Part shown: positions 1 to 34,848 of the stretch, piece after piece
Layout: each line of letters begins with the position of its first letter
Position numbering within the stretch: position 1 is the first letter of the stretch
NCBI GenBank assembly: GCA_020348985.1
Contig: CP070761.1
Coordinates: forward strand, 1,521,249 to 1,585,248
DNA from: Candidatus Thorarchaeota archaeon
Lineage (GTDB): Archaea > Asgardarchaeota > Thorarchaeia > Thorarchaeales > Thorarchaeaceae
Length of the DNA: 64,000 bases
Reading direction: 5' to 3'
Made by a program: the position numbers and the translations under genes
The notes under the pieces: model-generated
Databases searched by the model: none
Seen by the model: only the letters and a program-made list of their open reading frames with translations
What the model was told of the DNA's origin: nothing

Positions 1-2264
1 AACTCTTCAGAGGAATCGAACTCAATCGCCATGTCTGCGACACCCATCCAGTTGTGTGACACAAATTCATCGCCATTCTCGCCTGGTGTTGGATCGAAGC
101 CAACAATAGCCCACATGCCTTCAACAGACCATGTAATGTTGTCTTCCCACCTACCAGTCCGCTTGACGAAGTACTGGTCATCAAGTGTGTACGTGTTGCC
201 GTCAAGGTCAATCGCACCATCATCAGTGACTGTCCATACTGGAGGTTTGAAGTAGTCGATGTCGCCAAGACGAAGGTTGCTTGGACTCCAGAGTGTGTCG
301 CCTGTTATTTGGCGAATCGGGAACGTTACGCCATCGGGTGGTGCATAAACGGAATGAGTTCCGTTCGAAACTTCGAGATGTTCCTCAAAGCCCACAAAGA
401 TTGCCGATCTATCTAGAACCATTGATGGTGCTAGTTCATCGAAGCTGAAATCAACCTTCAGAACTGTGAGATCGTCTCCTATTTCAAAGTCAAACCCATG
501 CACATGGAATAGTGTTCCATTAATCTCTGAGTCAAATAGGATTGTGTCATCTGTTACAAGTGTGCCGTCACTCTGTTGCCAGATTCTTATCTTGAATTGC
601 GTCTTCGTGTAGTTCAACCCGGATACGAAATCTAGCGTCATCTGATATGTCACTTCAACCTGCCAATGATGAGATTCGTTGGAAGCCCCTCCGCTACCTA
701 ATACTTGGATGGTCATATTCTTGACTTCACTTGTTATGTTATAGTACCAATGTTGTCCAGATGGTTCATCATAACCACCATAGAACACAACTGATCCATT
801 AAGTGTGTCACCTGGCTTGTGAACAAGCATCGTCAGATTTAGCAGGTCGCCTTGGCTAGCCTGGCTGGCAATCTTGCCAAACTGGTTTAAGACAAAGGCC
901 TCAACAAAGTCAGATTTGTAGGCAAGCTTCACTGTTCCCTTGTCCTTAACCTCTGGTCTGACTGTCAGTCGTTCTCCGTCAGTCGCAGTTACCAGGGCCA
1001 ACTCCATTTCCGGCTGAATCACTCCGCCATCTTTGTATGGGTTGTGGTCCATGTTGGTTCTATTGGTGAAGTAACCTGCCCATTTCAGAGTGGTATTACC
1101 ATTGGAGTAGCCAGTTATAGTGTTGTTAACCACGAAGTACTCACTCATGTCAAGAGTGCTGTTGTATTCAATTCCGAAGTACGGGAACCATATTCCCACA
1201 TTCTCTTCGATTTCCGTCCATCGAAACTCTACATCAAGATATCCTGCCACCACGAATATCCCACTTGAGTTAAAGTGTAGGAACATTGTCGGCGACATGC
1301 CTGGCTGGTTTAGTGTCAGGTTCTTGGCATACACAACAGTCTCCATACTAGCATCTGGGTCAAACATACTCAATGGCCAACCAACTGGTTGTTCCCAAGT
1401 CAATTCTTTGGTGTAGTTCAGGTGGTGTTCGAAGAATGCAAAAGGAACAAGGACTTCACCTAGTTCCTTTCCCGCTTGGATAGTCACAACGAACGTGTCG
1501 TTGTCATTCACATAATGAATGATCTCTCCATCCACATTGGTAATCTCTGAGTAGTAGTAGCTGGGGAGTGAGAAGTCTCTAGGATTCACTACGGTGCCGA
1601 GAGCTATCGGTGGTGTCTCAAAGGATCCTGATTGAAGTCTTGAAAGCCATGAGGGAGATACGGGTCGACCGTCTTGATCGATTCCCTGCATGCCCGTCCA
1701 GAATACGGCCTCAACCACTGGTTCCACAAAGGTGATGTGAAACACTGTCTCGTACGCGTTGGTTGTTTCGGTGTATTCGCATTTGGCCTCATCTAGGTCC
1801 ATGAATTGACCTTGACTCGGTTCCTGACTTCCTGCTTCGTAGTTTAGACTCAGAACGTTCCAATGGTCCCTTGTCACATTATACTCAAGAACGAAAATCG
1901 GAGTTCTTGGAAGCCAAGTTGTGCCCCAGAAGTGAACCGTGTCAAGGGTATTCCCTTCACCTAGAAATGATTTGGGCATCGTTATGTTGACATACAGACT
2001 CGTATTCACTTCGACGTTGAAATTGTTCTCCGCGATACTTGTGAGATTGTCAGCATAACCCACCCAGACATCGGGTTGAGGCCCGAATACCCATTGTGAG
2101 TTCTCCTCGTTGTGGCTCGCATCTCGCGTTTCATCGACGACCTCCCAAATGACGCGAACGTATGGGTCGCCGTCCTGTGCATTTACTACGGCCACATTCG
2201 TTGCCGAGGCCGCTAGACTTGCGAGGAGCACTGCGATGAGAATCATGCTGTTCGATTTTCTCAT
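1..2264 (-). CDS. Large secreted/cell-surface (S-layer-like) glycoprotein, partial (continues past window start); absent from ORF track
   Basis: Manual translation from ATG 2264 (GGAG upstream): MRKSNSMILIAVLLASLAASATNVAVVNAQ signal peptide; frame stays open to position 3 (...MAIEFDSSEE); beta-rich, acidic, many N-x-S/T sequons. Confidence 0.8.
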   Translation of the reverse strand, partial: MRKSNSMILIAVLLASLAASATNVAVVNAQDGDPYVRVIWEVVDETRDASHNEENSQWVFGPQPDVWVGYADNLTSIAENNFNVEVNTSLYVNITMPKSFLGEGNTLDTVHFWGTTWLPRTPIFVLEYNVTRDHWNVLSLNYEAGSQEPSQGQFMDLDEAKCEYTETTNAYETVFHITFVEPVVEAVFWTGMQGIDQDGRPVSPSWLSRLQSGSFETPPIALGTVVNPRDFSLPSYYYSEITNVDGEIIHYVNDNDTFVVTIQAGKELGEVLVPFAFFEHHLNYTKELTWEQPVGWPLSMFDPDASMETVVYAKNLTLNQPGMSPTMFLHFNSSGIFVVAGYLDVEFRWTEIEENVGIWFPYFGIEYNSTLDMSEYFVVNNTITGYSNGNTTLKWAGYFTNRTNMDHNPYKDGGVIQPEMELALVTATDGERLTVRPEVKDKGTVKLAYKSDFVEAFVLNQFGKIASQASQGDLLNLTMLVHKPGDTLNGSVVFYGGYDEPSGQHWYYNITSEVKNMTIQVLGSGGASNESHHWQVEVTYQMTLDFVSGLNYTKTQFKIRIWQQSDGTLVTDDTILFDSEINGTLFHVHGFDFEIGDDLTVLKVDFSFDELAPSMVLDRSAIFVGFEEHLEVSNGTHSVYAPPDGVTFPIRQITGDTLWSPSNLRLGDIDYFKPPVWTVTDDGAIDLDGNTYTLDDQYFVKRTGRWEDNITWSVEGMWAIVGFDPTPGENGDEFVSHNWMGVADMAIEFDSSEE

Positions 2265-16928: not shown

Positions 16929-18740
16929 CTATTTCGTCTTTGTGCGGAAGTAGATTACTAGCAGTGCAAGCGTTGAGAGTGTACCCAGGATCAATATTCC
17001 AACCCATAGAAGCACTGGAGTGGTCTCTCCTCGCAACGGTATGACGTCGACTTCTATCCATTCAGTTTGTTCTTGATTGTTGACTGATGAATTGTCAATG
17101 GCTGTAATCCTATAGTAGACAGTGACCCCATGTGAGTATTCACCAAGCTTGGCTGCATAGAAGTCGTTGCTATGAAGTTCCATGTCAGCTGTGTTAACAT
17201 CCTCATCGATGGATGAATACCACTCTATTGTGATGCTCGCGATTTTGTTGAGATCCCAGACATAGGCCTGAACCGTAACGTTGTTTGATGTCGCAGTCGT
17301 ATAGGCTTGGAAGACCCGGATTTCGTTAACCAATGGAAGGTGTGCATCAGGAGTGACTTCCACTATCGTGATAGCAAATGCAGTTTGATTGAAGAAGTCG
17401 AGCATTGTCATGTTGAACGTGTATGTGCCGACGTCAAGTCCATCAACATTGATGGAAATGTTCTCTCCACGCCACGTCCCATTCAAAAGGACAGTCGTGT
17501 TCGTTCCATCGAACTTAGTGAGATTGTAAAAGCGAGGATTACTCTCATTTGCGGACCAGTCAAGAGAGTATCCAGTATAGCCCTCCTCGTAGGAGAAGTC
17601 CTCTGTTGCGTTTATTTCAGGTGCCCTGATGTCCCGATAGATGTTGACCTCAACTGAATCTGTCGCGTTGTGATCGAACTCGTCATACAATGTGATATTC
17701 AAGGTATAGTTTCCTAGGAAGAGCCCGGACACTTCATATCTGATATCACCGCCTTCAGGATCCTCGAACTCCCATTCGGGTTGGGTGACATTCTGTGGCG
17801 AGTGGAACTCAGAAACGTTACCGTACTCGGTGTCATTGTACTGAATGAACACTTCTATTGTGTAGTTCAGTGGGTTGCTATCATATGCGAACCACTCAAC
17901 CAAAAACGGTCCTGAACCAAACTCGAAAGACATGTCATCGGGTGACGTAATGGTCGGGTCAGTCAGATCCAACAACACTGTTACGTTCACTATGCTCGTA
18001 GAATTGTGACCAAGTGTGTCATTCACGAACAGAGTATAGAGATACCAACGCGATGCATTCAAGCCGTCGACATTGACTGTGATGTTGCTTCCATCCCAAT
18101 CACCATCCACAACAACCGTGAAGTTGTTTACTGGTTCATTCGACTGTCGAGTAACGTTGAACGTGTCAGGATTTGTTTCGGTGATGTTCCAGGTTATTTC
18201 ATGTCCAAAGCTGCCTACCTCATAGGTGAAGTTTGCAGGTGCAACGATAATGGGTCCCAGTTCGTCAGCTATCACGTCAACAATGACTGTATCTATTGCG
18301 GATTCGTTCTGCATGTCGAAAACAACACATACGAATTCAAAACTGACAGGAAGTGTGTGAGTCAAATTCTCATCGTATATATGATCCAAGTCAACTACAA
18401 TCTCAGAGCCGTCCCATGCACCCGATTCGTACAACTCTGCGTCTCTTGAGATTGAGTAGTTTTTGGGCTCGTCGGAGGTTGCATTCCATCTGATCTCTTC
18501 TCCAAGGCTCCCATTCTCAAATAACAGATCATCTGGACTATCGATCACTGGTGCAGCCGGAAGGAAGACCTTGTCACGTGGAGTCTCGTTCATCGAGAAC
18601 ACTGCAAGGCCCGTGGTCATCGGTGAGATGACCAGCCACGTGAGAAGCAACAAACCTGCAGCTAGCTTGACACGCCTATTCTGGAGCATTCGAAATACAT
18701 CCTTCAATGACCTAGTCCGGACTGTGACGGGTTCAGCCAC
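16929..18740 (-). CDS. Cell-surface protein with tandem Ig-like repeats and C-terminal membrane anchor
   Basis: N-terminal hydrophobic segment; four ~100-aa repeats (P-I...F/YE-G...W...NP...Y...G-W-G...VDGL); C-terminal TM followed by RTKTK. Confidence 0.8.
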   Translation of the reverse strand: MAEPVTVRTRSLKDVFRMLQNRRVKLAAGLLLLTWLVISPMTTGLAVFSMNETPRDKVFLPAAPVIDSPDDLLFENGSLGEEIRWNATSDEPKNYSISRDAELYESGAWDGSEIVVDLDHIYDENLTHTLPVSFEFVCVVFDMQNESAIDTVIVDVIADELGPIIVAPANFTYEVGSFGHEITWNITETNPDTFNVTRQSNEPVNNFTVVVDGDWDGSNITVNVDGLNASRWYLYTLFVNDTLGHNSTSIVNVTVLLDLTDPTITSPDDMSFEFGSGPFLVEWFAYDSNPLNYTIEVFIQYNDTEYGNVSEFHSPQNVTQPEWEFEDPEGGDIRYEVSGLFLGNYTLNITLYDEFDHNATDSVEVNIYRDIRAPEINATEDFSYEEGYTGYSLDWSANESNPRFYNLTKFDGTNTTVLLNGTWRGENISINVDGLDVGTYTFNMTMLDFFNQTAFAITIVEVTPDAHLPLVNEIRVFQAYTTATSNNVTVQAYVWDLNKIASITIEWYSSIDEDVNTADMELHSNDFYAAKLGEYSHGVTVYYRITAIDNSSVNNQEQTEWIEVDVIPLRGETTPVLLWVGILILGTLSTLALLVIYFRTKTK

Positions 18741-18873: not shown

Positions 18874-19797
18874 ATGCCCAAGGCGCTCTTTGCCATATGG
18901 TGGGACGACAAGCTCGGTCCCTTTGTTGGTCGCTACTACCCAGAGGACCAACCGATTTCTGGAGAAGAGGCTCTTGCTGTCTTCATGGGTCATGGCGTGA
19001 ATCACGAGGCGAAATTTGGGTACACTAAAATCAGCCAAGGGTTGGTAGTCTCATATATGGAAGCACCCAACTGCATTGGAGTTCTGCTCAACGACGATGA
19101 TGACCCTGCTGTTGTTGAAAGGAATCTTCTTCGCCTGATTAAGTATATCGACCTCACAAGTAGCGATTGGGACAAGGAAGTCAAGGCCGCTTTCGAAACT
19201 CTGCTCGAGCTCATAGACGAAACAAGTGGCGCAGAGTTACTAACTCGACCGGCCGTTCAGAAGATGATAGATGACATGTACGGAGGTCGACTTCCGGCCA
19301 TAAAACCTCGACACATATTCAGAAGCGTTGCACAGTATCCGGAAGCAGGCACATACTTGGGACAGGATGATGAAGAGGTCGAAAGGACTCTGAGAGACCT
19401 TGAGAATGAACGAGTACTTGTGGCCAAGACGTTCGGAAGAACAATCAAATGCCGTCAATGTGGGGGCAGGGACGTAGAAGTAACCTTGCTGTGTCCTGTC
19501 TGTGATTCGCCTAACTTGCACAACGTATACCAAGTCTTCTGTCCAAAGTGCAGTGAGATGTTTCAGACAGTAATTGTTGACGAGTTGTCTGAAGTTCGGT
19601 GTCAGAGATGTCTCGAGGCAGTAGAAGTACACGAACTCGAAGCAATCGACGTAGATCCCCTATGCAATGACTGTGGACGGGCGTCTGACGAGCCCAAGAT
19701 TGTCCTTACATGCTCGGACTGTGGTAAGCACCTGAAAGGAGTAGACTTGCTTGGAGGTACCGGGCTCGCCTACTCTCCTGATTTGAAAGAGGAATAG
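18874..19797 (+). CDS. Longin/uDENN-like domain fused to wHTH + multi-CxxC (TackOD1-like) domain
   Basis: MPKALFAIWWDDKLGP...YYPE N-terminus; six CxxC pairs at C-terminus; ATG 18874 preceded by GAGGAG. Confidence 0.65.
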   Translation: MPKALFAIWWDDKLGPFVGRYYPEDQPISGEEALAVFMGHGVNHEAKFGYTKISQGLVVSYMEAPNCIGVLLNDDDDPAVVERNLLRLIKYIDLTSSDWDKEVKAAFETLLELIDETSGAELLTRPAVQKMIDDMYGGRLPAIKPRHIFRSVAQYPEAGTYLGQDDEEVERTLRDLENERVLVAKTFGRTIKCRQCGGRDVEVTLLCPVCDSPNLHNVYQVFCPKCSEMFQTVIVDELSEVRCQRCLEAVEVHELEAIDVDPLCNDCGRASDEPKIVLTCSDCGKHLKGVDLLGGTGLAYSPDLKEE

Positions 19798-19905
19798 ATT
19801 CAACTTCCATGATATTGTGTAGAAAACACCCCAAACGCTTGATGACACCTCATGCGCAACAGTTTTCATGCGGTTTTGAGCGGTACGGCTCGAGGGTTCA
19901 ATCAA

Positions 19906-20769
19906 ATGAGTGATAATGTCAAGATTGGAGTAATCAAATTAGGTTGCCTCGGAATCGCTGCACTTCTCGACGCGATCTTTGATGAGAGAGCAGATAGAGA
20001 AGATCTGGATATCAGAGGTTTTACTAGTGGAGCGAAGCTCGATCCAGATTCTTGTGAGGATACTGTCAAGAGAGCAATTGAGTACAAGCCGAATCTGATG
20101 CTCGTAGTTAGCCCCAACGCGAAGCTGCCAGGTCCGACCAAGGCAAGGGAAATGCTCTTCGAGACGAAGATTCCCACGATTTCGATTTCTGACGCACCTG
20201 GGAAGAAGGCATTCAAGAAGAAGAACGAGGAAGGGAAGAAGGTAGACAACGTCTTAGAAGGACAGGGCTACATTGTGATCCCTGCAGACTCCATGATCGG
20301 AGCCCGCCGTGAATTCCTCGACCCCACTGAGATGATCACTTTCAACACCGACGTCATGAAGGTTCTATCTAACACAGGCTATGTCCGTGTAGTACAGAAG
20401 ACGGTCGGAAAGGTCATCGACGCCATCAAGGCTGGCAAGACACCTGAAATGCCAATGTCATCAGTCTCAGCAAAGAAGGCGGTCGAAAAGGGAGGCTTCA
20501 GCAATCCATACGCACGAGCGAAGGCCTTTGCTGCCATAACAATAGCAGAATCAGTAGCTGATATCACAACGGAAGGATGCTTCATTGAACAGGATAAAGA
20601 CAAGTACATCCCTCTAGTTGCAGCGGGTCACGAATTGATGCGAGTTGCAGCACGCCTTTCTGATGAAGCCCGCGAGATCGAAAAGGGCTCTGACACTGTT
20701 CTGCGGACTCCACATTCGAAAAAAGGGGAGCGCAAGAAGAAGAGACAGCTTCTTGGTGACTTTGAATAG
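19906..20769 (+). CDS. mtd: F420-dependent methylene-H4MPT dehydrogenase
   Basis: KIGVIKLG, DERADREDL, SPNAKLPGP, DSMIGARREFLDPTEM, FSNPYARAKA, VAAGHE. Confidence 0.95.
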   Translation: MSDNVKIGVIKLGCLGIAALLDAIFDERADREDLDIRGFTSGAKLDPDSCEDTVKRAIEYKPNLMLVVSPNAKLPGPTKAREMLFETKIPTISISDAPGKKAFKKKNEEGKKVDNVLEGQGYIVIPADSMIGARREFLDPTEMITFNTDVMKVLSNTGYVRVVQKTVGKVIDAIKAGKTPEMPMSSVSAKKAVEKGGFSNPYARAKAFAAITIAESVADITTEGCFIEQDKDKYIPLVAAGHELMRVAARLSDEAREIEKGSDTVLRTPHSKKGERKKKRQLLGDFE

Positions 20770-20824: not shown

Positions 20825-22402
20825 TTACGATGCGTCCTTCTCTTTGATTGTCTTCTTGACTGCTTGGCGGGCTGCATCAATTACTTTCTCAGCTCTTGTT
20901 TCGCTAAGACCTTCGACTTTGGATGCAAGTCGACTTGGTGTCTCTCCGGCTATCTGAGCCGCCGAGGTATAACCCGCAGATGTGAGTCTACTCTCGAGAC
21001 TAGAGCCCACTCCAGGAATCCTCTGCAACGGTAACACTTCCGCAAAGCCTTCACCTAAGATGTCCGACATCTCGGAATCTGACAGCTCTGCGCCCGCGTC
21101 GATAATCTCAACTTGGCTCCGGACTGCATCAAAGTCTTCCTGTCCGAGGAAAGCGTCTACTGTTCTTCGGACTTCTTTCTCATCGAAGGCGATATCCAGA
21201 TCCTCCATCTCTAGTTCCTCACCTAGGACTTCTGGTAGATGACCACTCCAGTAGAGTGCAAGAAGAGTGAGCAAGACTGCCACCTCACTTCCATATTGCG
21301 TCACTAGAAAGGGGATGCCCCAGCCCCAAGCTTGGAGATCTACTGCCCAATACAGACACATGTAACCGAGGAAGAAGAACCACACTGACGTCAGTCTTCT
21401 TCCTTTAGTCAGCGGAGAACCAAACTCTGACCAAATCAACATCAGACACAGACCTAGTAGGTATCCCTCAATACCTCGCAGAATTACAAGAAGAAGATCC
21501 GCCTCCAGTTCGACCGTCCCACCAGTGATGACGTAAAATGTTGAACCGAAAATCGTCAGTAGTCCCATCATTAGAATTGCTGCGCTGAATGCGGTCTTCC
21601 TACCTTTGAAGTCAGCCAGGAAACCGGCAAGGATGACCCCAATTGCTAAGGCTAGGGGTTGAAAATAACCTGCCCACATCGACGAAGCTACTAGCGATAC
21701 GAATTCCCCATCAACCACGCGTATCGTGGATTCAGTTGAAAATGTCCAAAGCATGTGAGCCGCCATGATGCAGACCATAGGCAGGAAGTAACTACCAGAG
21801 TGACCTTTGCCAGCTAGGGAGACTTGTGTGAGATTCCATGGTCTCAACGCGCCTATGATAATCACCGCCACCATCAAGCTGACCTCCAGTAATGGGAATC
21901 CCATAATTGCCAAGCCCCCGATTGTGGACTCAAAGAGAATCAAGAACCAACTGGTTAGAATGGAAATGGAAAGGAACAGGGCAACAACTTTCCCTCTGAA
22001 TCTGACAACGATTGTTCGATTCAGAACCACAGCAGTAACAGGAAGTATGAGTGCCAGACCAATGAATGCACCAATCACAGACATATATTCCAGATATGGA
22101 CTGAATTCATTAGGAGATCCAAGCGAGTATCTCAGAATGCCCACAATAACAGGCAGGAGGCCGCCAACGAAGGCAAACGCGAGACTCCGCTTGACTCTGT
22201 CAATCAGAAATCCCACCGGAATCAGGAGGAGGGTTGCAGCCAGCGCACCATAACCCAGAAGCGGCATGTGATCAACAATATAGGGCAGGAGCAGAACGCC
22301 CCTCGTCACCTGAGTTATGATATAGATACAGTACGCTGTTGGCAATGAGAATAGTATGAATGTCAATGCTGTTCTTGTTGGAAACTCTCGATATTCAAGC
22401 AA
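20825..22402 (-). CDS. MFS-like multi-pass membrane protein with C-terminal helix-hairpin-helix domain
   Basis: About 12 TM segments with GFLIDRVKR and GFLADFKGRK; acidic linker; LQRIPGVG...AGY...VEGLSETRA HhH pattern. Confidence 0.65.
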   Translation of the reverse strand: MLEYREFPTRTALTFILFSLPTAYCIYIITQVTRGVLLLPYIVDHMPLLGYGALAATLLLIPVGFLIDRVKRSLAFAFVGGLLPVIVGILRYSLGSPNEFSPYLEYMSVIGAFIGLALILPVTAVVLNRTIVVRFRGKVVALFLSISILTSWFLILFESTIGGLAIMGFPLLEVSLMVAVIIIGALRPWNLTQVSLAGKGHSGSYFLPMVCIMAAHMLWTFSTESTIRVVDGEFVSLVASSMWAGYFQPLALAIGVILAGFLADFKGRKTAFSAAILMMGLLTIFGSTFYVITGGTVELEADLLLVILRGIEGYLLGLCLMLIWSEFGSPLTKGRRLTSVWFFFLGYMCLYWAVDLQAWGWGIPFLVTQYGSEVAVLLTLLALYWSGHLPEVLGEELEMEDLDIAFDEKEVRRTVDAFLGQEDFDAVRSQVEIIDAGAELSDSEMSDILGEGFAEVLPLQRIPGVGSSLESRLTSAGYTSAAQIAGETPSRLASKVEGLSETRAEKVIDAARQAVKKTIKEKDAS

Positions 22403-22519
22403 TCATCTCACCCTGTCCCAATGGAATTCCGGCATCAGCGAAACAATATGGACATTTCGAATTCCAGATTTGGACTGAGAATCGGGTGCTTGTACCCGAT
22501 ACCTTAAAGTCAGTTCGTT

Positions 22520-23473
22520 TTGAGCTTCGGCGGTAGGAGAGCTGAAGAGAATTTGGCGGGCAGGCTTAGAGTTCAGGAATTCATGGTCATAACTGACGGA
22601 GGGGTCCCAATCTTCCATTACTCACCTTCGGACACTCGAAAGCTTGACGAGCTGCTATCCGGATTCCTGACGGCAATCACAAGTTTCGCATCTGAGTTTG
22701 GAGAGAAGTCAGTACAGAGCCTCTCCTTTGAGGGATCAGAGATTCTCTACGAACAGGAGCCCGGAAAAGCGATCTTCATCTTCCTGGTTGATGTTGGTGC
22801 TCAGGAGAGCATTCTTAGGATTGTGCTTTCAGACTTAAGCTCTAGATTCCTAGAGAAGCACGAGTCTGACCTATTGGCTGATGTCCAGATAGAAGAACGC
22901 TTTGAGGAATTCAGGAGTGAGGTTCGCGAAGCGTTCGAATACTACGAGGGCGTTCTCATGGTAACATCTCGCCTGAGTGCCTATGTCGTTCCACGGAAAA
23001 ACAAACTAGCTTTGGCCTTGGCTACTGACAAAGCAGGGTTTCTGGATGAATTCCATCGGGAATTCGGATACGATGGGACCAGAGTGCTTGAAGCCATTGA
23101 TGGGAAAGCATCGATAGAGAGGCTCGCAGCAGCCTTCAACATTGAAGATTCTGAAATCTCCGAAATCATAGAATACCTGGCCATCTGGGGAGTCATAGGC
23201 GTTTCTCAGCTCTGCCCCAAGATCCGCGCAGATGATGCTCGATTTGATGCGTTTCTGGACATTGTAGGTCTTCCCAACAAAGACTATCAGCTCCTTCAAC
23301 GAGCGAAGGCTTTCTGCACGGGAACAAGGTCGGTCGTCGATGCCAGCATAAGATTGAACGTAACAGCCGAGAGATTGTACGAGGTGCTTTTGAAGATGGG
23401 AGATGAAGTTGAATGGAATTTGGTAGAAGTTGCAGGTTTGCCTGACACTCTTCAAAGGCGACTAATACGATAG
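22520..23473 (+). CDS. Longin + tandem wHTH protein (NPRL2-like architecture), paralog 1
   Basis: MVITDGGVPIFH...LLSGFLTAITSFASEF longin pattern; VVP...AIDG...SIERLA...YLAIWGVI; true start may be slightly downstream. Confidence 0.7.
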   Translation: MSFGGRRAEENLAGRLRVQEFMVITDGGVPIFHYSPSDTRKLDELLSGFLTAITSFASEFGEKSVQSLSFEGSEILYEQEPGKAIFIFLVDVGAQESILRIVLSDLSSRFLEKHESDLLADVQIEERFEEFRSEVREAFEYYEGVLMVTSRLSAYVVPRKNKLALALATDKAGFLDEFHREFGYDGTRVLEAIDGKASIERLAAAFNIEDSEISEIIEYLAIWGVIGVSQLCPKIRADDARFDAFLDIVGLPNKDYQLLQRAKAFCTGTRSVVDASIRLNVTAERLYEVLLKMGDEVEWNLVEVAGLPDTLQRRLIR

Positions 23474-23706
23474 CAGAGTCACTGTAACAGTACGCTGTGT
23501 GCAAGCACTCACGACTCGCACGATTTGCAGGTTCCTCAGCCATACATGAGATAACTGCTTTGGAGAGCATCCGTAGCTTTGCTTAGATTCAGGTTTGATA
23601 TTTGCTTGCTGTCATAATCTTATATTCCTGAGAAACGATTTGTCGAAGCGAGAGATTGGCTGATATTGTTGGGGTTGACAGTTTCATGTCATGCAAATCG
23701 AGACCA

Positions 23707-25383
23707 ATGGCGCTGGAAGATGGGTTCATACAAGATGAGAAGGAGAGAAAGAGTAGACGTTGGTTTCTACGAATTGGATGCATAGCAGTCGCAAGTGCAG
23801 TCTGGCTTGCTTTGAGAACAGGACTAAGACCTGCGAGGATTGTGTATCCCTGTCAGCAGGCAGCGCTGTCAAACATACAGATGTTCAAGATGTCCGTTCT
23901 TGCTCTTCTACCAACAACAGTAAGCATGCGTTCTACAACAACCTTGATGAAGCCTGCTTTGGTTTTGACCATACTTTCAGTAGGTTCATTCTTTTTGGTA
24001 GCTGATCCCTTCATTTTCGACTCTGCTCTGCAGCAGTCAGAAGATGATTATGCGCGTGTACCTATCAGCCTAGCGCCACATATTGCGCCAACAACTGGTG
24101 CTGCGTCAGATCTCTTCTTTGTCCAAAATGCAACAGGATATGAAGGAAATCTGGATGATGCGGTCTCCGAGTTGCTTGACATAATGGCTACTCAGGGCGT
24201 GGGCTTCTTTGAAAGCATCACTACTCCAGATGGCCTAATTGGTAGTAATGATGTTGTGATCATTAAGGTGAATGGTCAGTGGGACTATCGTGGGGGCACA
24301 AACACGGATTTGGTCAAGAGCATAATCAAGACAATACTCAGCCATCCAAGTGGTTTCACTGGAGAAGTCATTATTGCAGACAATGGACAAGGCATTGGAG
24401 ATTTAGATAGGAATTGGGCTAATGCCTATCACCGCAATCAGTCTGCACAAGATGTTGTGGACTTGTTTGCTCCCGACTATGATGTCAGTTCAATACTCTG
24501 GGACAATCTACACGAATTTACAGTTGATGACTATGATGATGGAGACTACACTGATGGCTATGTACGTAGTTCTGATTGGAACGAAGAGACACAGATGTTT
24601 GTGTCCTATCCTAAGTTTAGGAGTTCAGCAACCGGCGCATACATTAGCTTCAAAGAGGGTGTGTGGAGCAACACAACTGGATTCGATTCGGATCGATTAA
24701 AGGTCATCAATGTACCAGTTCTGAAAAGCCATGAACTCTATGGGGTGACTGCTTGTGTTAAGCACTATATGGGAGTACCTCAGGGCTACATAGTTTCAAG
24801 TGTACATGAAAGCGCTCCGCATGAGCACTTCTCCGTTGCGCTGGGAGGAATGGGGACGCTGATGGTTGAGACAAGAGCCCCTGTGCTCAACATTCTGGAT
24901 ATGATTTGGGTTAATGCTCATCCGCTGGAGAGTTCATTGCAGAGAGGACCGTGGTCAGCCTATCCTGCAGCAAGATTCACTGACATCTTAGGAGCGAGTA
25001 CAGACCCCGTGGCGCTAGACTATTGGTCTGCAAAACATGTCCTCATGCCCACATCAGCGTATCTGAATTACTCGGCATTTTCGTCATTGGATCCGGATAA
25101 TGAATCAATCGTTGAGCATATCCTATATCCATACGTGCAACAGGAGGAATCTTTCCACAATTACCTGACTCGCTCAATGAGCGTCATGAATGACTCAGGT
25201 TTCCAAGTCACAATGAATCCCGATGAGATCAACGTGTTTGTGTCTACTCTGCCTGATAGACCCATTACATATACAGTCTCTGAGCCACCTAATCCGATTG
25301 ATTATCTTCCTCTAGTTCTCGTGCCAATTGCTGCGGGCGTCTTGGTGGTATTAGTAGCCATGGTTCGAAAGCAATCAAAATAG
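23707..25383 (+). CDS. DUF362-family membrane-anchored exported protein
   Basis: WLALRTG..PARIVYPCQQAA N-terminal motif, DVVIIKVN, INVPVLKSH, GVTACVKHYMG, STDPVALD, C-terminal TM. Confidence 0.7.
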   Translation: MALEDGFIQDEKERKSRRWFLRIGCIAVASAVWLALRTGLRPARIVYPCQQAALSNIQMFKMSVLALLPTTVSMRSTTTLMKPALVLTILSVGSFFLVADPFIFDSALQQSEDDYARVPISLAPHIAPTTGAASDLFFVQNATGYEGNLDDAVSELLDIMATQGVGFFESITTPDGLIGSNDVVIIKVNGQWDYRGGTNTDLVKSIIKTILSHPSGFTGEVIIADNGQGIGDLDRNWANAYHRNQSAQDVVDLFAPDYDVSSILWDNLHEFTVDDYDDGDYTDGYVRSSDWNEETQMFVSYPKFRSSATGAYISFKEGVWSNTTGFDSDRLKVINVPVLKSHELYGVTACVKHYMGVPQGYIVSSVHESAPHEHFSVALGGMGTLMVETRAPVLNILDMIWVNAHPLESSLQRGPWSAYPAARFTDILGASTDPVALDYWSAKHVLMPTSAYLNYSAFSSLDPDNESIVEHILYPYVQQEESFHNYLTRSMSVMNDSGFQVTMNPDEINVFVSTLPDRPITYTVSEPPNPIDYLPLVLVPIAAGVLVVLVAMVRKQSK

Positions 25384-25495
25384 ATCCAACAGGCAAGGGA
25401 ATAGGATTCTTCAACTAGAAACGAATCTTATACAATATGAAACGCAGCGAAGGTATAAGAGCACAAGTCTCAGTAGACCTTCTAGTTCACCGTGG

Positions 25496-26806
25496 ATGGA
25501 GACGTGTAGGTTGGTAAAAGAGATTGTCGTGATAGAGGCTGGCGGGATACCTCTTTACCACTACAGTGTTACAGGTGAAAGGCGTCTTGATGAGCTCGTT
25601 ACGGGGTATCTATCCGCTATGGGGGCATTCGCAGAGGAAGTTGGCGGAGAGACGTTCAGGGTCATCGCGTTTGAAGAGAATAAGTTCGTTTGGCTGAAAA
25701 AGGGGAACCTCTTCTTTATCGCGCTAATCTCAGAAGAGGATAGTGCAGAGATTTATCGTGTCATATTGCAGAACCTATCAGAACAGTTTGTTGGGATGTT
25801 CTACGAGGAACTTACGAAGGAATGGCAAGATATCAGAATATTCAGGTCTTTCACGGAGAACGTTGAACTTACACTGCAAAGATTTGATGGAGTACCAGGG
25901 TTAGCACGGAGATACAACACAGCGCTGCTACCCGTTGATGACATAAATGCCCTCAAGCAGACGTTGGTTAAAATTGAAGAAGACCCTGATATATATCGTG
26001 GTGCCGCAATCACCACCGACAGATTTGTCATCGTGTCTACTCTCAGAACATATGAGCTCGAAGCTATGCTTGATTTGATGGACTCCCCTGAGAAGGAGTC
26101 TGATCGTGAAGGGCCAGGGTTCCTCCTTATTCATACGAGTCTTGACCCAGCAACTTCATTCTATGTAGTGCCAATAGAGGACAAGGGCATCAGCGTCTTT
26201 GTCGCCAACCGAGGGTTGACAAATGACATGTACTTCTCGAAGGTGCGGCCATTTGTGAAGACCTTAGAAATCACTAGCCTAGATCAAATGAAGAGAGTGT
26301 TTCCAAAAAGAAGAGAGGAAGTGCTCTCATTTTATGACTACGATCTTGTAGTGCCTCTAAGTCCAATAGAAGAGATTCTTGATGGAGCTAGAGCCAAGTT
26401 ACCAGGAATGACGGAAGATAGCTTTGGAAAAGCCCTAGAAATCATAAGGACGCTCAAGCGTGACATGACGGTCCTAGAGGTTCAGGAGGAAGTAAGGCTT
26501 CCACGGGAAACTATTGATGAGATTCTTGCGTTTCTCATAGCACGAGGCATGGTTGTCATATCGAAGATCTTCCCAGTGATGGATGACAGAGACGAACGTT
26601 TTGCCGCATATCTAGAAGTCATAGGAATCCCTAAGAAGGACTATGATATTGTCGACCTAATCTGGGAGCACTGCAACGGAAGCCTCTCAATCAAGGAAAT
26701 CTCGGAGGTCTCTAGAGCACCTGCCTTCAGAATCGTCGAAGTGCTTAGAAAACTAGGAAACCACGTCAAGTGGGAAAGAGAAAGGGTGTTGAGCCGTGTC
26801 GGGTAA
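25496..26806 (+). CDS. Longin + roadblock/profilin-like + tandem wHTH protein, paralog 2
   Basis: VVIEAGGIPLYHY...LVTGYLSAMGAFAEE; C-terminus aligns with 22520-23473 (RFAAYLEVIGIPKKDY vs RFDAFLDIVGLPNKDY). Confidence 0.7.
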   Translation: METCRLVKEIVVIEAGGIPLYHYSVTGERRLDELVTGYLSAMGAFAEEVGGETFRVIAFEENKFVWLKKGNLFFIALISEEDSAEIYRVILQNLSEQFVGMFYEELTKEWQDIRIFRSFTENVELTLQRFDGVPGLARRYNTALLPVDDINALKQTLVKIEEDPDIYRGAAITTDRFVIVSTLRTYELEAMLDLMDSPEKESDREGPGFLLIHTSLDPATSFYVVPIEDKGISVFVANRGLTNDMYFSKVRPFVKTLEITSLDQMKRVFPKRREEVLSFYDYDLVVPLSPIEEILDGARAKLPGMTEDSFGKALEIIRTLKRDMTVLEVQEEVRLPRETIDEILAFLIARGMVVISKIFPVMDDRDERFAAYLEVIGIPKKDYDIVDLIWEHCNGSLSIKEISEVSRAPAFRIVEVLRKLGNHVKWERERVLSRVG

Positions 26807-27548
26807 AATCGTCAGCATTCATAGTTTTAGAGGCGGTACTGGCAAATCAAACATAGCCGCGAATCTCGCAGCCGTTGCTGCCTTGGACGGAAAGCGTGTA
26901 GCGGTTATGGATACAGATGTTGCTAGCCCTGGAATTCACGTAATATTCGGAATGGGCAGAGAGAAAATTGACTACACTCTCAATGACTACCTTAGAGGCG
27001 AATGCGAGATAACTGATGCGTGCCATGACATGAGCGCTCGGCTAGGGATTAAGAAAGGGAAGATATTCCTGATTCCAAGCTCTATGAGTGCTACAGACAT
27101 CACTCGGATTCTGCGTGAAGGCTACGAAGTCAGCGATCTGAAGAATGGATTTACTGACGTGATAAAGGCGAAGGATCTTGACTATCTCATTATTGACACA
27201 CACCCAGGCCTAGATAGAGAGACACTGCTGTCAATGGCTACTGCAGACTATCTTTTCGTCGTTGCCAGAGTGGATCAACAGGACCTTCTTGGCACTGCCG
27301 CCACGCTTAGCGTGGCCAGGAAACTTCAGGTGCCTACAATCAAGATCGTTGTTAACAAGAAGCCAAGCATTTACGAAGACAAGAAAATCATTGCCGAGGT
27401 TGAGAGCAAATTCAAAGCCAAGGTGGCCACGATAATACCTCTGCTGCCTTTGCTGATAGAAGCTGGTAGCAGATATATCGTCACACTTAGGCACCCTGAG
27501 AGCGAGTTCACGAAAAGCATTAACGAAATTTACAGGCTCATGTTGTAG
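26796..27548 (+). CDS. MinD/ParA-family ATPase
   Basis: HSFRGGTGKS deviant Walker A, DTD..SPG, IIDTHPG, VVNK; overlaps upstream gene by 11 nt. Confidence 0.9.
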   Translation: MSGKIVSIHSFRGGTGKSNIAANLAAVAALDGKRVAVMDTDVASPGIHVIFGMGREKIDYTLNDYLRGECEITDACHDMSARLGIKKGKIFLIPSSMSATDITRILREGYEVSDLKNGFTDVIKAKDLDYLIIDTHPGLDRETLLSMATADYLFVVARVDQQDLLGTAATLSVARKLQVPTIKIVVNKKPSIYEDKKIIAEVESKFKAKVATIIPLLPLLIEAGSRYIVTLRHPESEFTKSINEIYRLML

Positions 27549-27593
27549 GAAATCACTTCCTTTCTAATACATTACACTTGAATTGGTTGAAAA

Positions 27594-28355
27594 TCAATGA
27601 GAGCTGAAACCGCCATCCACTACGAGCACCTCACCTGTCACGAAAGAGGAGTCGTCAGCTACCAGAAAGAGAACCGCCTTTGCGACTTCTTCGGGATCAC
27701 CGAATCTTCCGAGAGGATATTCTCGGAGTCGTTTTTGTCGTACTTCCTCAGAGACCCCCTGTTTTCTTAGCGTTCTCTCCAGCATGGGCGTTTCAATTGC
27801 TCCTGGACACACACAATTGACTCGAATCCCCTCGCCTGCTAGTTCGATGGCAAGCGTCTTTGTGAGCGCAATCACTCCACCTTTTGAGGCAGAGTAAGCG
27901 GGTGAGAATGAACCTATCAGTCCGGCAACAGATGCATTGTTGACAATCACGCCTCCACCTCTTGAAATCATATGAGGAATCGCATACTTGCAGCAGAGAA
28001 AAGCTGAACGAAGGTTGACCTCCATCGTTCGGTCCCATTCTTCCTCAGAGGTGTCCACTAGCTTCTTGACGACTTCAACACCCGCATTGTTGAATAGAAT
28101 GTCAATGCCCCCGTGTTGCAGTGCACTCCTTGTGAGTTCATTCACTTGCTCTTTGTCAGAGACGTCGGCTTCAATGAACTCGGCCCTACCACCAGACTGC
28201 TTGATTTCCTCAATGACTTTGCTTCCATCCGAAGCATTAAGGTCAGCCCCAATCACGATTGCTCCTTCTTTAGCGAACAAGTGAGCTGTTGCCTTTCCGA
28301 TTCCAGCTGCTACACCAGTTATCACAGCAACCTTGCCTTCAAGTCTCTTGGTCAT
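27594..28355 (-). CDS. Short-chain dehydrogenase/reductase
   Basis: TGVAAGIG, NNAG, YSASKGG, VDGG. Confidence 0.9.
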   Translation of the reverse strand: MTKRLEGKVAVITGVAAGIGKATAHLFAKEGAIVIGADLNASDGSKVIEEIKQSGGRAEFIEADVSDKEQVNELTRSALQHGGIDILFNNAGVEVVKKLVDTSEEEWDRTMEVNLRSAFLCCKYAIPHMISRGGGVIVNNASVAGLIGSFSPAYSASKGGVIALTKTLAIELAGEGIRVNCVCPGAIETPMLERTLRKQGVSEEVRQKRLREYPLGRFGDPEEVAKAVLFLVADDSSFVTGEVLVVDGGFSSH

Positions 28356-30022: not shown

Positions 30023-31324
30023 CTATTCTGCAACTCCACACCAATCGAGGACAGTGACTGCGATTACCTCTGCGGTCTTTACTATTGATTCTATACTGAC
30101 TCGTTCATCATATGAATGGATGCGCTCAGCCTTGGGACCGAAGGTCACAGCAGGAATCCCGTTGTGGACAAAGAACCTAGTGTCGAGTCCCGCAGCGCCT
30201 CCATAATAAACTGGCGATGCGCAACCGACTCGAACAGCATTCTCGCTCAATAGTAGTACGAAAGGGTGTTCAGGATCTAGTTCATGAGGTCGGGCATTCC
30301 AGCCAAACCACTCCACATGGGGCATATTGTCCTTTAGCCATTCATCTTGCCTAGCAGCTTTCCGAATAGTATCTTCTACTTGTTTTCTTACTTCTTCACG
30401 AGTCTCACCTGGAGGCCAACCAATCCTGCACTCTATCGTGCATGAACCCGGAACAGTGGATGGCCAATCACCAGCCCTAACGGTTCCTACGTTGATTGTG
30501 GTGGCCTTTCCCTTCATTAATGGGTCAGTTTCGGCGTACGGATAATGGATGACACTTTGCCTGTGTTCGTTCAGGCCTTTCAACGCTTGCAGAATCGGAA
30601 GCATCTTCTCTACTGCGTTGACTCCGAAGTGAGCGGTAGCTGCATGGGCTGGGACTCCTGGCACGATGACACGGAAGTACATCACTCCGGCACTTGCTAC
30701 AGTCAGATTGAGAGCAGTCGGTTCCGGTATGATTGCTGCATCGGCCTTCGGTGAGACCATCCTCATATACAGATTTCCTCCCACACCCCCATCCTCTTCC
30801 TCGATAGTTGTCTCAAAGAAGAGGTCTCCCTTCAACTTCGTCTTGGTTTCAGTCAAGGCTTGCAGCAGAATAAGTAGAGCTGCAACACCAGCCTTCATGT
30901 CGCCAGCTCCTCGACCATAAAGCCAGTTGTCAGCAACATCTCCCGACCAGGGATATCGTGACCACTGCTCGGTTGGTTCCGGAGACACAACATCGACGTG
31001 ACCACTCAGACAGATTGAACGTCCCCCGCCAGAGCCCGCAGTTTTCGCTGAAACATTCGGTCTATCTTTGTATCCATTCTTCACAAAGGAGGTCGTTTCG
31101 AAGTAGTCTGCATGTTCCTTCAAAGCCGAGAGGTCTGGATACACGTACTCCGGGTGAAGACCCAATCTCTTCAAGTACTCAAAGACGTGTCCTTGAACCT
31201 CAGACTCATCACCCGATATACTCGGTATTCTTACCAAATCCTGTGTTGTACGAATGAGCAGCTCCTTGTGCTCTCGAATCCACGTCAACACCCTAGTAGC
31301 AGAGGTCTCCTCATTCATTACCAA
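30023..31324 (-). CDS. ArgE/DapE-family (M20) deacylase
   Basis: LSGHVDVV, YGRGAGDMKAG, EEE, IPEPT, IHSYDE. Confidence 0.9.
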   Translation of the reverse strand: MVMNEETSATRVLTWIREHKELLIRTTQDLVRIPSISGDESEVQGHVFEYLKRLGLHPEYVYPDLSALKEHADYFETTSFVKNGYKDRPNVSAKTAGSGGGRSICLSGHVDVVSPEPTEQWSRYPWSGDVADNWLYGRGAGDMKAGVAALLILLQALTETKTKLKGDLFFETTIEEEDGGVGGNLYMRMVSPKADAAIIPEPTALNLTVASAGVMYFRVIVPGVPAHAATAHFGVNAVEKMLPILQALKGLNEHRQSVIHYPYAETDPLMKGKATTINVGTVRAGDWPSTVPGSCTIECRIGWPPGETREEVRKQVEDTIRKAARQDEWLKDNMPHVEWFGWNARPHELDPEHPFVLLLSENAVRVGCASPVYYGGAAGLDTRFFVHNGIPAVTFGPKAERIHSYDERVSIESIVKTAEVIAVTVLDWCGVAE

Positions 31325-31401
31325 TCACCATCATTCTTGAAGCTCGACGAGTGACCCTGCTTCGAGACTCCTGGTTCATCTTCTTGGCTCCTCTCTATTT
31401 T

Positions 31402-33174
31402 TTATGAAGTGTCAATAAGCCGCCGTAAACCTGAACTTATGTCGTCTAGGACCTCTACCAGTCTCGAAATCTCTTCGTCGACTAATCCGAAGATCTTGGA
31501 TCGCTCTGTTTCGAGTTTCGCTAGAGACCCGTGTACATCAATCCAGTCGTAGGGATTATCACTTAGACTCGTGTATCTTGCCACTGTGTCTCTGTCAAGG
31601 TTTGATATTGGCATTCGTCTAATAGAGCTAATGGCTGCATTCAATTCCACATAGTCCCTGATTAGCTCAAGACGAGACATATAGCTGACATCCATTGGTG
31701 GTGGTTTTCGCCACACCCAGCCGATTGTGCGATTGAGGTGCTGGACCGTTGAGACAATGAAGCGATTTACCTCTTCGATTCTGCTCTTATCAGGTAGAAC
31801 GGCCGCTTTCCTAATCATTCTGCTGAATGTGTTCCGTTCTCTGAGTATGCGCTCAATCCTTCTCAGTACCTTTTCAAGACCAAAGGGACTTCGAGGAAGC
31901 TGCCTGTATTCCATTATGATGCTTTCAAACAACTGCAATGGTGTGAAGATGTCATGGGGCAGGATTTCTGCATTTGCAATGTCAAAGATGGATTTCTTCA
32001 TGAACTCAGCATAGAATTCGACGGATGTCCTGTCTAGATTCTCAATATCGTCCTTCTGTGTGTGGTATAGCGGGCTAGGGAAAGACACTCCGTAGATCGT
32101 GGGAACTCCGGATATCTCGAAGAACCAATGATCACTTCCATATGCGGGAGGTCCGTATTGATTCACATCGCGAGGATTCTTGATGGATTCTACCAATCCT
32201 CGAGCGAATTCTTCGAGCTCAAGTGTCGAGACAATGTGATTCTGAGCGTTATATCCAATTGAATCGAGACTAAGAATCACTGCCGCTCTCGATACAATCT
32301 CAGGATTGGCTCTAACATAAGCTCTCGAGCCATTAATCCAATAGTAATATGTTGTACCCCCACACTCTTCTGCACCAAAGAACAGAAATCGAACAGTCCT
32401 CCTCAGTTGCCCCCCATTTTTCACGTACTCGGACATAAGTCTGGCCAACTCGAGGACGATTGCAGCAGGAGCGCCTCCATCTGCGGCGCTATGGAAATAC
32501 GCATCATAGTGAGCACCAATGAATACTTCGTGAGAGGAAAGTTCTTCGCCCTCCAATGAGACCTCAAGGTTTGAAGAAGATGCATTCTCGTCCACTTCGA
32601 CTTCTGTTACGATTTTGATTTCTACCTCTCCTCTCTCCATTAGATTAGATAAGAAATCAGCATCTTCCTTCGATATGCTCAGCAGAGGCAATTTCATCTC
32701 AGGACCAACTTCGGTTACAACGACCTTCCTCAAATTCCCTTCATCAGGTGAAGCGACGAGGACAGCACCAAGTTTTTGCCTCTGAGCTGAAAAGCAGGTG
32801 CGCGCCGGTGATAGGTACAAATGCGGACCCCACGAAGCAAGTCCAACCATGCCCTCTCTCTTCGATGGTTCTTCCTTATCCAAATGATTCAGTCTTACTA
32901 GTTTGGACTCGACATCGATGGAGGGAGAGTATGGAAACAGCGCTGATGTGATCTTCTTTCTGACAGGTGAGACGATTTCAACTGCCACTGATTTTGGGTA
33001 CCACCCATATACTTGGAATGGACTCTCGATTATCTCTTTAAAACCAAAGCTTGTCAATTGCTTCTTGATAAACTGACATGCTTGTTTCTCAGCCTTGGAT
33101 CCAGCTAGGCGATACTCGATTCTGGATAGGCCTTCGATGTACTCAAGGATACGATCAGTCGACACGTTCTCCAA
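31402..33174 (-). CDS. M28 metallopeptidase with PA domain and helical C-terminus (cytoplasmic), paralog A
   Basis: RLAGS, GAHYD, AAD, AEE, SLD, GSDH, YHTQKDD; no signal peptide. Confidence 0.85.
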   Translation of the reverse strand: MENVSTDRILEYIEGLSRIEYRLAGSKAEKQACQFIKKQLTSFGFKEIIESPFQVYGWYPKSVAVEIVSPVRKKITSALFPYSPSIDVESKLVRLNHLDKEEPSKREGMVGLASWGPHLYLSPARTCFSAQRQKLGAVLVASPDEGNLRKVVVTEVGPEMKLPLLSISKEDADFLSNLMERGEVEIKIVTEVEVDENASSSNLEVSLEGEELSSHEVFIGAHYDAYFHSAADGGAPAAIVLELARLMSEYVKNGGQLRRTVRFLFFGAEECGGTTYYYWINGSRAYVRANPEIVSRAAVILSLDSIGYNAQNHIVSTLELEEFARGLVESIKNPRDVNQYGPPAYGSDHWFFEISGVPTIYGVSFPSPLYHTQKDDIENLDRTSVEFYAEFMKKSIFDIANAEILPHDIFTPLQLFESIIMEYRQLPRSPFGLEKVLRRIERILRERNTFSRMIRKAAVLPDKSRIEEVNRFIVSTVQHLNRTIGWVWRKPPPMDVSYMSRLELIRDYVELNAAISSIRRMPISNLDRDTVARYTSLSDNPYDWIDVHGSLAKLETERSKIFGLVDEEISRLVEVLDDISSGLRRLIDTS

Positions 33175-33183
33175 TTCTCAGCC

Positions 33184-34488: not shown

Positions 34489-34547
34489 CTCCCTTTCTAT
34501 CAGTAGAGAATCAAGCTCAGTTCTCTAGAGCAACAGGGATGGCAGTA

Positions 34548-34594
34548 TGAACAATGATAAGAAAGGTCCCAACATACATGTTCAATCTTGAACA
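34548..34594 (-). promoter_or_regulatory. 47-bp regulon element, copy A (before aminotransferase-M28A-deacylase unit)
   Basis: Minus strand: TGTTCA AGAT TGAACA TGTA TGTTGG GACCTTTCTTATCAT TGTTCA. Confidence 0.8.
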
Positions 34595-34744
34595 CGCGAT
34601 GATTGGGACATTCCTCGAAATCGAGTTTTGTGTTGGCTGAGTCAGTCATATCATTGCTCCATTCGTCCAAGGCGGCTCCTTCATTGAAACCCGTACCACA
34701 GAAGACATGTCTATGAGACCTGCCTGAAGGAAGCGCGTGTCTAT

Positions 34745-34791: not shown

Positions 34792-34848
34792 CACCCTGTT
34801 GGATTTGCTCTACAGATCACGCGTTGAATTCTGAGGCAATGGTCGGCT

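Follow-up and report, generated by a model that had tools for sequence, protein, structure and literature searches.

Two longin and winged-helix paralogues linked to a MinD/ParA-type ATPase in Thorarchaeota

We analysed a 64,000-nucleotide (nt) stretch of DNA from a Candidatus Thorarchaeota archaeon (contig CP070761.1 of assembly GCA_020348985.1, positions 1,521,249–1,585,248 of the forward strand; the whole stretch is called the window below), whose region 22520-27548 carries four plus-strand genes, namely gene A, a DUF362 gene, gene C and gene D. Genes A and C encode related proteins in which an N-terminal longin domain is combined with two C-terminal winged helices, and gene D, which starts within the end of gene C, encodes an ATPase of the MinD/ParA type. 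Overall, we put at roughly one half (0.5) the probability that A and C act as dimer-forming longin platforms, supplemented in C by a roadblock domain, which would regulate or adapt the ATPase D. The original prediction for this region, made from the sequence of the window, had described two NPRL2-like paralogues coupled to a MinD-type ATPase and had proposed a GATOR1-like heterodimer. Its statements on domain content, paralogy, the unusual ATPase motif, gene overlap and linkage were confirmed, the likeness to NPRL2 was found to hold in part, and the heterodimer did not hold as a general working unit.

Paralogy and domain structure of A and C

Judged from their sequences, A and C are true paralogues. 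BLASTP aligned the two proteins at 30% identity over the N-terminal 148 amino acids (aa; E 1e-20) and at 34% identity over 87 C-terminal aa (E 1e-15), and the family profiles, built from 43 C and 35 A homologues, matched each other in hhalign with an E value of 5.9e-51, C carrying an extra insert of ~155 aa. The structure model of C (predicted local distance difference test (pLDDT) 81.9, predicted template modelling score (pTM) 0.74) consists of four domains, and that of A (pLDDT 82.7) of a longin domain and two winged helices. The longin beta-beta-alpha-beta-beta-beta-alpha-alpha pattern was seen in both models, and structural alignment with VIA-align matched the longin domain of C to Sec22b (Z 13.8, root-mean-square deviation (rmsd) 2.8, 122 residues aligned) and that of A to Fuzzy (Z 12.4) and VAMP7 (Z 12.2-12.3). 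Similarly, the extra middle domain that had been proposed for the second protein, C, aligned with the roadblock proteins Loki Roadblock3 (Z 11.6) and MglB (Z 11.4), and its residues R168 and E187 are invariant. Two winged helices are present at the C-terminus of each model.

Pfam searches with C returned TrmB (1.3e-6) and Fuz_longin_1 (0.0053), and the commonest matches among the A and C homologues were likewise TrmB, the HTH_47 winged helices and Fuz_longin_1. The last of these matched 39/43 C and 26/35 A homologues, and Intu_longin_1 matched 15/35 A homologues. The winged helices are acidic to neutral, with median net charges of -2 and +2 in C and of -5 and -1 in A. Aligned Thorarchaeota homologues are 48-64% identical to the A and 44-87% identical to the C of the window. 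When 1.84 billion representatives were searched exhaustively with the profile, 360 matches were obtained at E<=1e-3, only 15 of them at E<=1e-30, with only seven full-length clusters; the remaining matches share the longin domain alone or the winged-helix part alone. Among the 120 best word-indexed matches, every source name that bears an organism is Thorarchaeota. In a quick tree, A was strictly monophyletic (SH-aLRT 100), and A, the Thorarchaeota C and the C of two further families (f12 and f2, see below) formed supported clades once five unlabelled full-length relatives were assigned; the tree joins A with the C-type of f2 at an SH-aLRT of 92 only and with a long-branch warning.

An ATPase with arginine in place of the signature lysine

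The product of gene D gave Pfam matches above cut-offs to AAA_31 (3.6e-17), ParA (6.1e-16) and CbiA (7.2e-14), and its closest solved relative is Archaeoglobus fulgidus MinD-1 (1hyq, E 1e-16, residues 6-245). The top NCBIfam model was minD_arch (TIGR01969) with 91 bits, far under the cut-off of 201.75, and we therefore rejected an assignment of D as archaeal MinD proper. In an alignment of 38 orthologues from four coded families of Asgard archaea, the Walker A region reads HS[FY]RGGTGKSN, and arginine occupies the position of the signature lysine in all 38, as had been noted for the window. D thus departs from the deviant Walker A consensus xKGGxxGK[ST] at the signature lysine but keeps the remainder of the motif. 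Also invariant in 38/38 sequences are R12, G13-S18 including K17, D39-T-D41-x-x-S-P-G and D134-T-H-P-G, at a mean column identity of 72%. Because its Walker A, switch and Walker B motifs are invariant throughout, D looks like an active and strongly constrained nucleoside triphosphatase (NTPase). As regards a membrane-targeting amphipathic helix at the C-terminus, the alignment with 1hyq reaches residue 245 of the 250 residues of the Thorarchaeota D, leaving no tail beyond the core fold, and the forms from family f12 are ~10 residues longer.

Linkage and distribution of the module

In 51 related loci of the Thorarchaeota type, the genes follow one order: a gene for a TackOD1 protein (+), in 25/51 loci a gene for F420-dependent methylene-tetrahydromethanopterin dehydrogenase (MTD), a membrane-protein gene (-), and finally A, C and D (+). 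Of these loci, 44 contain D; six others stop at a contig end and one has 6 kb more DNA without D. In the window C and D share 11 nt, D beginning at a GTG before C ends, in agreement with the original prediction, and this proximity is general, since D overlaps C or lies within 20 nt of it in 42 of the 44 loci (29 overlaps, mostly of 11 nt, and 13 spacings within 20 nt). In one of the two remaining loci D is split into two frames, and in the other a 1.19-kb insert intervenes. In the window, the DUF362 gene separates A from C. That gene was found there in 0/51 related loci, in which A adjoins C directly; by this comparison it is an insertion specific to this genome that lies outside the module. 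Both of its junctions are crossed by public contigs (23387-24518 and 25344-25830), which are possibly the window's own source. The public runs compared with this region were of DNA only, and none of RNA was listed for 22400-27600.

The distribution of the module was assessed in 301 Asgard genomes. Orthologues of D, at a threshold of E<=1e-40, occurred in 63/76 genomes of family f1 (76-87% identity to the D of the window for orthologues without a frameshift or contig-end split), in 17/19 genomes of f12 (52-56%) and in the single genomes of f2 (61%) and f28 (48%), and none was found in 26 other families of the sample. Matches to the C/A profiles accompany D closely. In f1, both were present in 63 genomes and neither in 12, one genome had only a C cut by a contig end, and none had D only; in f12, both were present in 17 genomes, C only in one and neither in one. 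Elsewhere in the 301 genomes, matches to the C/A profiles were at the longin level only (1e-16 to 1e-22). Overall, A, C and D are slowly evolving and single-copy, and they keep a fixed synteny with housekeeping genes. The module would be a housekeeping switch, chromosomal and inherited vertically, of Thorarchaeota and two further Asgard families.

The pairing of D with a longin protein recurs outside the common A-C-D arrangement, in lineages that have one paralogue. At all 12 loci examined in f12, and likewise at the single f2 locus, D is preceded at 11-100 nt by one full-length C-type gene that includes a roadblock domain, and no A gene was found at these loci. Conversely, C is absent from five genomes of the Thorarchaeota genus g12 (L100-L103, L107), where an A orthologue (54-58% identical) precedes D, with a gap of 82-87 nt in the four genomes measured and an otherwise unchanged upstream order. 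Because f12 and f2 have C only and g12 has A only, an obligate heterodimer of the NPRL2/NPRL3 kind is not general. From the gene content, an A/C heterodimer is plausible for most Thorarchaeota and would not be a general requirement.

The divergently oriented membrane protein is a conserved neighbour and a candidate for a third component of the module. Its gene adjoins A/C in 50/51 Thorarchaeota loci and lies divergently upstream in 12/12 f12 loci; at the f2 locus there was no match for it. Pfam HHH_5 matches it at aa 457-511 (1.4e-8), and its Atlas language-model features resemble those of the major facilitator superfamily (MFS; 0.94-0.95, 21 clusters).

Resemblance to NPRL2 and NPRL3

The likeness to NPRL2 that had been proposed for the two paralogues stands at the level of architecture. 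NPRL2 and NPRL3, core subunits of GATOR1, each consist of a longin domain and at least two winged helix-turn-helix (wHTH) domains according to the accessible text of PMC5681675, and GATOR1 chains were the only structures whose alignments went beyond the longin domain of A or the longin and roadblock domains of C. The model of C aligned with 9o5a_C over residues 7..429 (Z 11.3, 265 aligned, rmsd 13) and with 7t3b_C (Z 10.8), and the model of A aligned with the same GATOR1 chain over 1..288 (Z 9.8, 269 aligned) and with the shorter GATOR1/SEAC subunit over 1..208-210 (Z 9.1-9.5, 186-189 aligned). The long A alignments were found in Foldseek-guided and Foldseek-independent searches alike. The chains are unlabelled in the search output; from their lengths, we take the longer one to be NPRL3 and the shorter one NPRL2. 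Because solely GATOR1 chains align lengthwise and the published longin and wHTH layout matches, the architecture of the A and C models resembles that of NPRL2/NPRL3.

At the level of single domains and of sequence, the likeness did not hold. Foldseek did retrieve GATOR1 with the model of C (2e-6), but ranked it behind Fuzzy-Inturned and Mon1-Ccz1 (5e-8 to 2e-7), all at TM-scores <=0.35, and the top matches 9rs9_B (5.2e-8) and 7qla_A (1.7e-7) are subunits of tri-longin guanine nucleotide exchange factors for Rab GTPases (RabGEFs). The best single-domain fold matches of A and C did not come from NPRL2 but from generic longins and from the Fuzzy/Mon1 family, so that in the models the individual domains are no closer to NPRL2/NPRL3 than to other longins. 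Pfam NPR2 (PF06218) had no match at A or C either in a genome-wide scan or in hmmscan at E<=1, and HTH_NPRL3 (PF24064) had none anywhere in this genome. Among the homologues, a probably below-threshold similarity to HTH_NPRL3 was seen in 15/43 C (best E 1.8e-4) and 6/35 A (best E 3.1e-4), the Pfam cut-off being 27.2 bits. A few of the partial-match relatives from the exhaustive profile search carry C-terminal HTH_NPRL3 or NPR2 matches, and only P0341 exceeds the cut-off (HTH_NPRL3, 37.7 bits). A sequence-profile search of the PDB with the C family returned no NPRL chain, a MarR wHTH at E 0.027 being the sole match.

Two local features of GTPase-activating protein (GAP) longins were compared. 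A GP motif before strand 2 characterises GAP longins in the accessible text of PMC12290439. At this place the present proteins have G-x-P, not GP, with G7 and P9 in 35/35 A, and with G17 in 59/60 and P19 in 46/60 C. The catalytic arginine finger of NPRL2 is Arg78 on the longin hairpin; it would correspond to hairpin position 69 of C, which is basic (K/R) in 49/60 C, and the corresponding residue is acidic in A. The basic hairpin of C cannot be essential, because lineages with A only exist.

Proposed mechanism

We infer that A and/or C bind D, and a working model can be drawn from the known behaviour of these folds. Like other MinD/ParA ATPases, D would alternate between a dimer with bound ATP and a monomer that holds ADP or is empty, and the longin/roadblock face of A and/or C may bind one of these nucleotide states. 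The paralogues would then either stimulate hydrolysis by D or serve as its effector or adaptor, in parallel to MglB with MglA, or to MinE and ParB with MinD and ParA. The two winged helices would make protein-protein contacts, as in NPRL2/NPRL3, and this fits them better than DNA binding because they are acidic to neutral. The divergent MFS-like protein with its helix-hairpin-helix tail is a likely membrane site, cargo or input. In favour of this model, D is tightly linked to the longin genes and occurs together with them, its motifs are constrained, and pairings of a similar kind have been published (see below). Longin and roadblock domains are folds known as NTPase platforms, and they were recognised here at Z 12-14 for the longin domains and Z 11.4-11.6 against MglB and an Asgard roadblock protein. 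In addition, the surroundings of the module are metabolic and not those of a defence island.

Several observations weigh against the model. What is known here of the partnership between A/C and D comes from genes and models. As lineages with A only (no roadblock domain) and with C only exist, the module does not depend on any one feature of A or of C, which blurs any specific contact model. The putative arginine-finger position is basic in most C but acidic in A. One genome has A-C and D on separate contigs, and in another 3.3 kb lie between C and D. The linkage counts represent about three lineages and are not independent, because the genomes are relatives. In three f1 genomes that lack C and D (97, 92 and 88% complete), neither the membrane protein nor the TackOD1 protein was matched, and two control genomes had both; this joint absence adds little, because the genes are adjacent and one deletion or assembly gap may account for it.

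Alternative explanations

An alternative explanation is that the module positions or segregates DNA, with D as a ParA-type motor, A and C as winged-helix adaptors on DNA, and the helix-hairpin-helix tail of the membrane protein as the tether of DNA to the membrane. The archaeal SegAB and AspA-ParB-ParA systems are analogues, and a DNA-binding partner encoded alongside is usual for ParA-type ATPases. Winged helices and helix-hairpin-helix domains are typical DNA binders, and the Pfam matches to TrmB, HTH_47 and HHH_5 fit this role. However, across families the winged helices range from acidic to neutral, and their sole specific Pfam similarity, although probably sub-threshold (in the 15/43 C and 6/35 A homologues mentioned above), is to the non-DNA-binding C-terminal HTH of NPRL3. 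Helix-hairpin-helix domains mediate protein contacts too, and no repeat or centromere-like site turned up, although no search was aimed at such sites. We regard a role in DNA segregation as unlikely.

A second alternative is that the module belongs with the 'ParA-wHTH' systems, proposed to act against mobile elements, in which a ParA-like NTPase and wHTH proteins would coat invading DNA. In the accessible text of the preprint that describes them (bioRxiv 10.64898/2026.10.19.760177, October 2026), these systems, assigned to the ConB2 clade, are mostly archaeal and proposed to be immune, with a ParA gene and one or more wHTH genes, some of them fused to a profilin-longin-like domain. The gene pattern given there is found here, as A and C (longin and wHTH) precede D; a PG motif after sensor-1, as described in the same text, is present in the DTDxxSPG of 38/38 D; and PADLOC gave a weak match of D to PDC-M28B (2.5e-8), confined to the P-loop region. 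Against this, D keeps the second Walker A lysine (GKS) and has arginine at the first, and the ConB2 clade is described in that text with arginine at the second. The NCBIfam model KGGVGR scored 60.2 bits on D, under its cut-off of 90 and under the 91 bits for minD_arch. The wHTH proteins of the system are characterised in the accessible text as rapidly evolving, and a patchy distribution like that of defence genes would go with it, but the genes here are slowly evolving and single-copy, lie in housekeeping synteny and are kept in 63/76 f1 genomes. The comparison is one with the text of the preprint, whose accessible part does not include the exact membership list of the clade. We consider an anti-mobile-element function quite improbable.

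We give similarly little credence to conserved synteny without direct interaction, in which common regulation, or inheritance by chance within a handful of related lineages, would have kept the genes together. In its favour, the loci represent about three lineages within a single phylum, and relatives have their gene order in common. However, the C-D pair persists where its surroundings differ, since TackOD1 and MTD are absent from f12 and conservation is lacking immediately downstream at the 51 related loci, and stop and start codons overlap in 29/44 loci. Finally, A and C might form a heterodimeric GAP, a forerunner of GATOR1, for a Rag- or Arf-like GTPase encoded elsewhere, with D as a mere neighbour, and although the lengthwise alignment with GATOR1 chains only, the name NPRL2-like given to the family by Liu et al. 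and the G-x-P before strand 2 (A 35/35, C 46/60), where GAP longins have GP (accessible text of PMC12290439), agree with this, it is very improbable given a conserved block without any Rag-type or other small GTPase, the overlap and joint presence or absence of C and D, the lineages with a single paralogue, the silence of Pfam NPR2 at A and C and the lack of conservation at the putative arginine-finger position.

With A and C as platforms of the ATPase D remaining the preferred explanation, a further, evolutionary step may be conceived. The GATOR1-type architecture of longin/roadblock and tandem winged-helix domains could have first regulated a MinD-type (SIMIBI) ATPase in Asgard archaea, this ATPase being docked to a transporter-like membrane protein as a membrane-anchored switch that senses nutrients or substrates, and the pairing of NPRL2/3 with small GTPases would then be a later swap of partners. 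We offer this as a speculation that is distinctly unlikely in its entirety.

Gene boundaries, neighbouring genes and the wider window

The features of the locus are listed in Table 1. The open frame of gene A as listed spans 22520-23473; the ATG at 22583 is the better and most likely the true start, because the A homologues of 50/51 related loci begin at an aligned ATG, the 51st being truncated by a contig end.

Table 1 Genes of the module and its conserved neighbours in the window.
Feature	Coordinates	Strand	Description
TackOD1 zinc-ribbon output-domain protein	18886..19797	+	Pfam TackOD1 3.5e-17; N-terminal domain of ~140 aa uncharacterised
Membrane protein, divergent	20825..22402	-	multi-pass, MFS-like; helix-hairpin-helix at aa 457-511
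Gene A	22583..23473	+	296 aa; longin domain aa 1-128; winged helices ~153-213 and ~232-282; without roadblock domain
DUF362-domain protein	23656..25383	+	575 aa; hydrophobic N- and C-terminal segments; Pfam DUF362 E 2.6e-16
Gene C	25496..26806	+	436 aa; longin domain 9-131; roadblock domain 147-259; winged helices 307-362 and 380-427
Gene D	26796..27548	+	250 aa; MinD/ParA-type P-loop ATPase; GTG start

Among the 51 Thorarchaeota loci, the TackOD1 protein was seen wherever the contig extends far enough. Its N-terminal domain carries WWDDKLGP, with the W-D...G-P spacing of C9orf72-type GAP longins. The domain therefore looked like a GAP-type longin, which the searches did not support, hhalign to the A family giving E 0.14 (not significant) and the Atlas leads being at the 0.79 level only; one of these leads is a cluster with NPR2 in 19% of its members. 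The MTD gene of the window lies at 19852-20769 (+; E 1.4e-109).

The rest of the window is metabolic, with genes for beta-oxidation, peptidases, a set of methylamine methyltransferase proteins and an oligopeptide ATP-binding cassette (ABC) transporter. Neither mobile-element nor defence genes were recognised in the window, and neither A nor C nor the membrane protein was matched by PADLOC. Downstream of the module, 30023-45521 encodes an M20 and three M28 peptidases, a class-III aminotransferase, a CN hydrolase and the oligopeptide ABC transporter. The methyltransferase set at 46798-51491 (-) comprises MtmB, a corrinoid protein, an MtrH-like methyltransferase and a RACo activase. The MtmB frame in the window is open throughout its 459 aa, with no internal stop; an in-frame stop codon that is read as pyrrolysine is usual in MtmB genes. 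A protein of 603 aa encoded at 16929-18740 (-) had no Pfam match and contains many N-x-S/T sequons, repeat units of ~90 aa and a C-terminal membrane anchor, and it is probably a glycosylated surface protein. At 61986-63248 (+), 34 kb away from the module and with no link to it seen, a small GTPase domain of the Ras/Arf family (aa 240-411) follows, within one fusion protein, an N-terminal part of 240 aa that is itself uncharacterised.

Comparison with known systems

The protein family itself is already in print, as Liu et al. (bioRxiv 10.1101/2020.10.19.343400) name a Thorarchaeota family NPRL2-like; the accessible main text mentions MinD 0 times. The October 2026 preprint cited above (bioRxiv 10.64898/2026.10.19.760177) states in its accessible text that profilin-longin-like domains often accompany SIMIBI NTPases and that in some systems the place of MglA beside MglB is taken by ParA domains. 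We found no paper that names an NPRL2-like protein together with a MinD-type ATPase in Thorarchaeota, and the supplements of both preprints may hold such a case. The value of the present finding is limited, since the family and the pairing of longin-like proteins with ParA-like NTPases have been published, and its interest is moderate pending demonstrated binding or activity. The usual interpretation of Asgard longins, counted among the 'eukaryotic signature' proteins, is that they are partners for small GTPases, and here the sole conserved partner of an NPRL2/3-like family is a MinD-type ATPase, beside a transporter-like membrane protein. Should binding prove true, this would caution against reading NPRL2/3-like proteins of Asgard archaea as a proto-mTORC1 pathway and would provide an experimentally tractable case of a longin/roadblock platform that controls a SIMIBI ATPase.

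Similar to NPRL2/NPRL3, i.e. yeast Npr2-Npr3 and the core of GATOR1/SEACIT, A and C are two paralogues with an N-terminal longin domain and C-terminal winged helices. They differ from them in that their conserved partner is a MinD-type ATPase and not a Rag GTPase, on which NPRL2/NPRL3 act jointly with DEPDC5, that C has a clear roadblock domain, that Asgard lineages with one paralogue exist and that the cut-offs of Pfam NPR2, NPR3 and HTH_NPRL3 are not reached. The tri-longin RabGEFs (Mon1-Ccz1, Fuzzy-Inturned and BLOC-3) consist of three consecutive longin-type domains and lack winged helices at the C-terminus, whereas C has a longin domain, a roadblock domain and two winged helices, and A a longin domain and two winged helices. 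VIA-align matched their subunits Fuzzy (Z 13.3) and MON1A (Z 12.0) to C over residues 6..268, that is, over the longin and roadblock domains only, and we rejected A and C as members of this class.

D shares its fold family and its Walker A, switch and Walker B motifs with archaeal MinD (1hyq; Pyrococcus furiosus MinD, 1g3q), but has arginine for the signature lysine in all 38 orthologues and is encoded with longin proteins and not with cell-division or motility genes. As in MglB-MglA switches, the gene of a roadblock/longin-superfamily protein stands beside that of the P-loop NTPase which the protein would regulate. Unlike in MglB systems, C is a four-domain longin-roadblock-winged helix-winged helix protein, and lineages with A only have no roadblock domain. 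In our own reading of a criterion in the accessible text of the 2026 preprint, the serine at the first Walker A position of D would place it in the MinD-like branch PriB2 and not in the PriB1 branch named there. The module thus adds one more case in which a platform of the longin superfamily is paired with a P-loop NTPase, and the protein family concerned has already been published.

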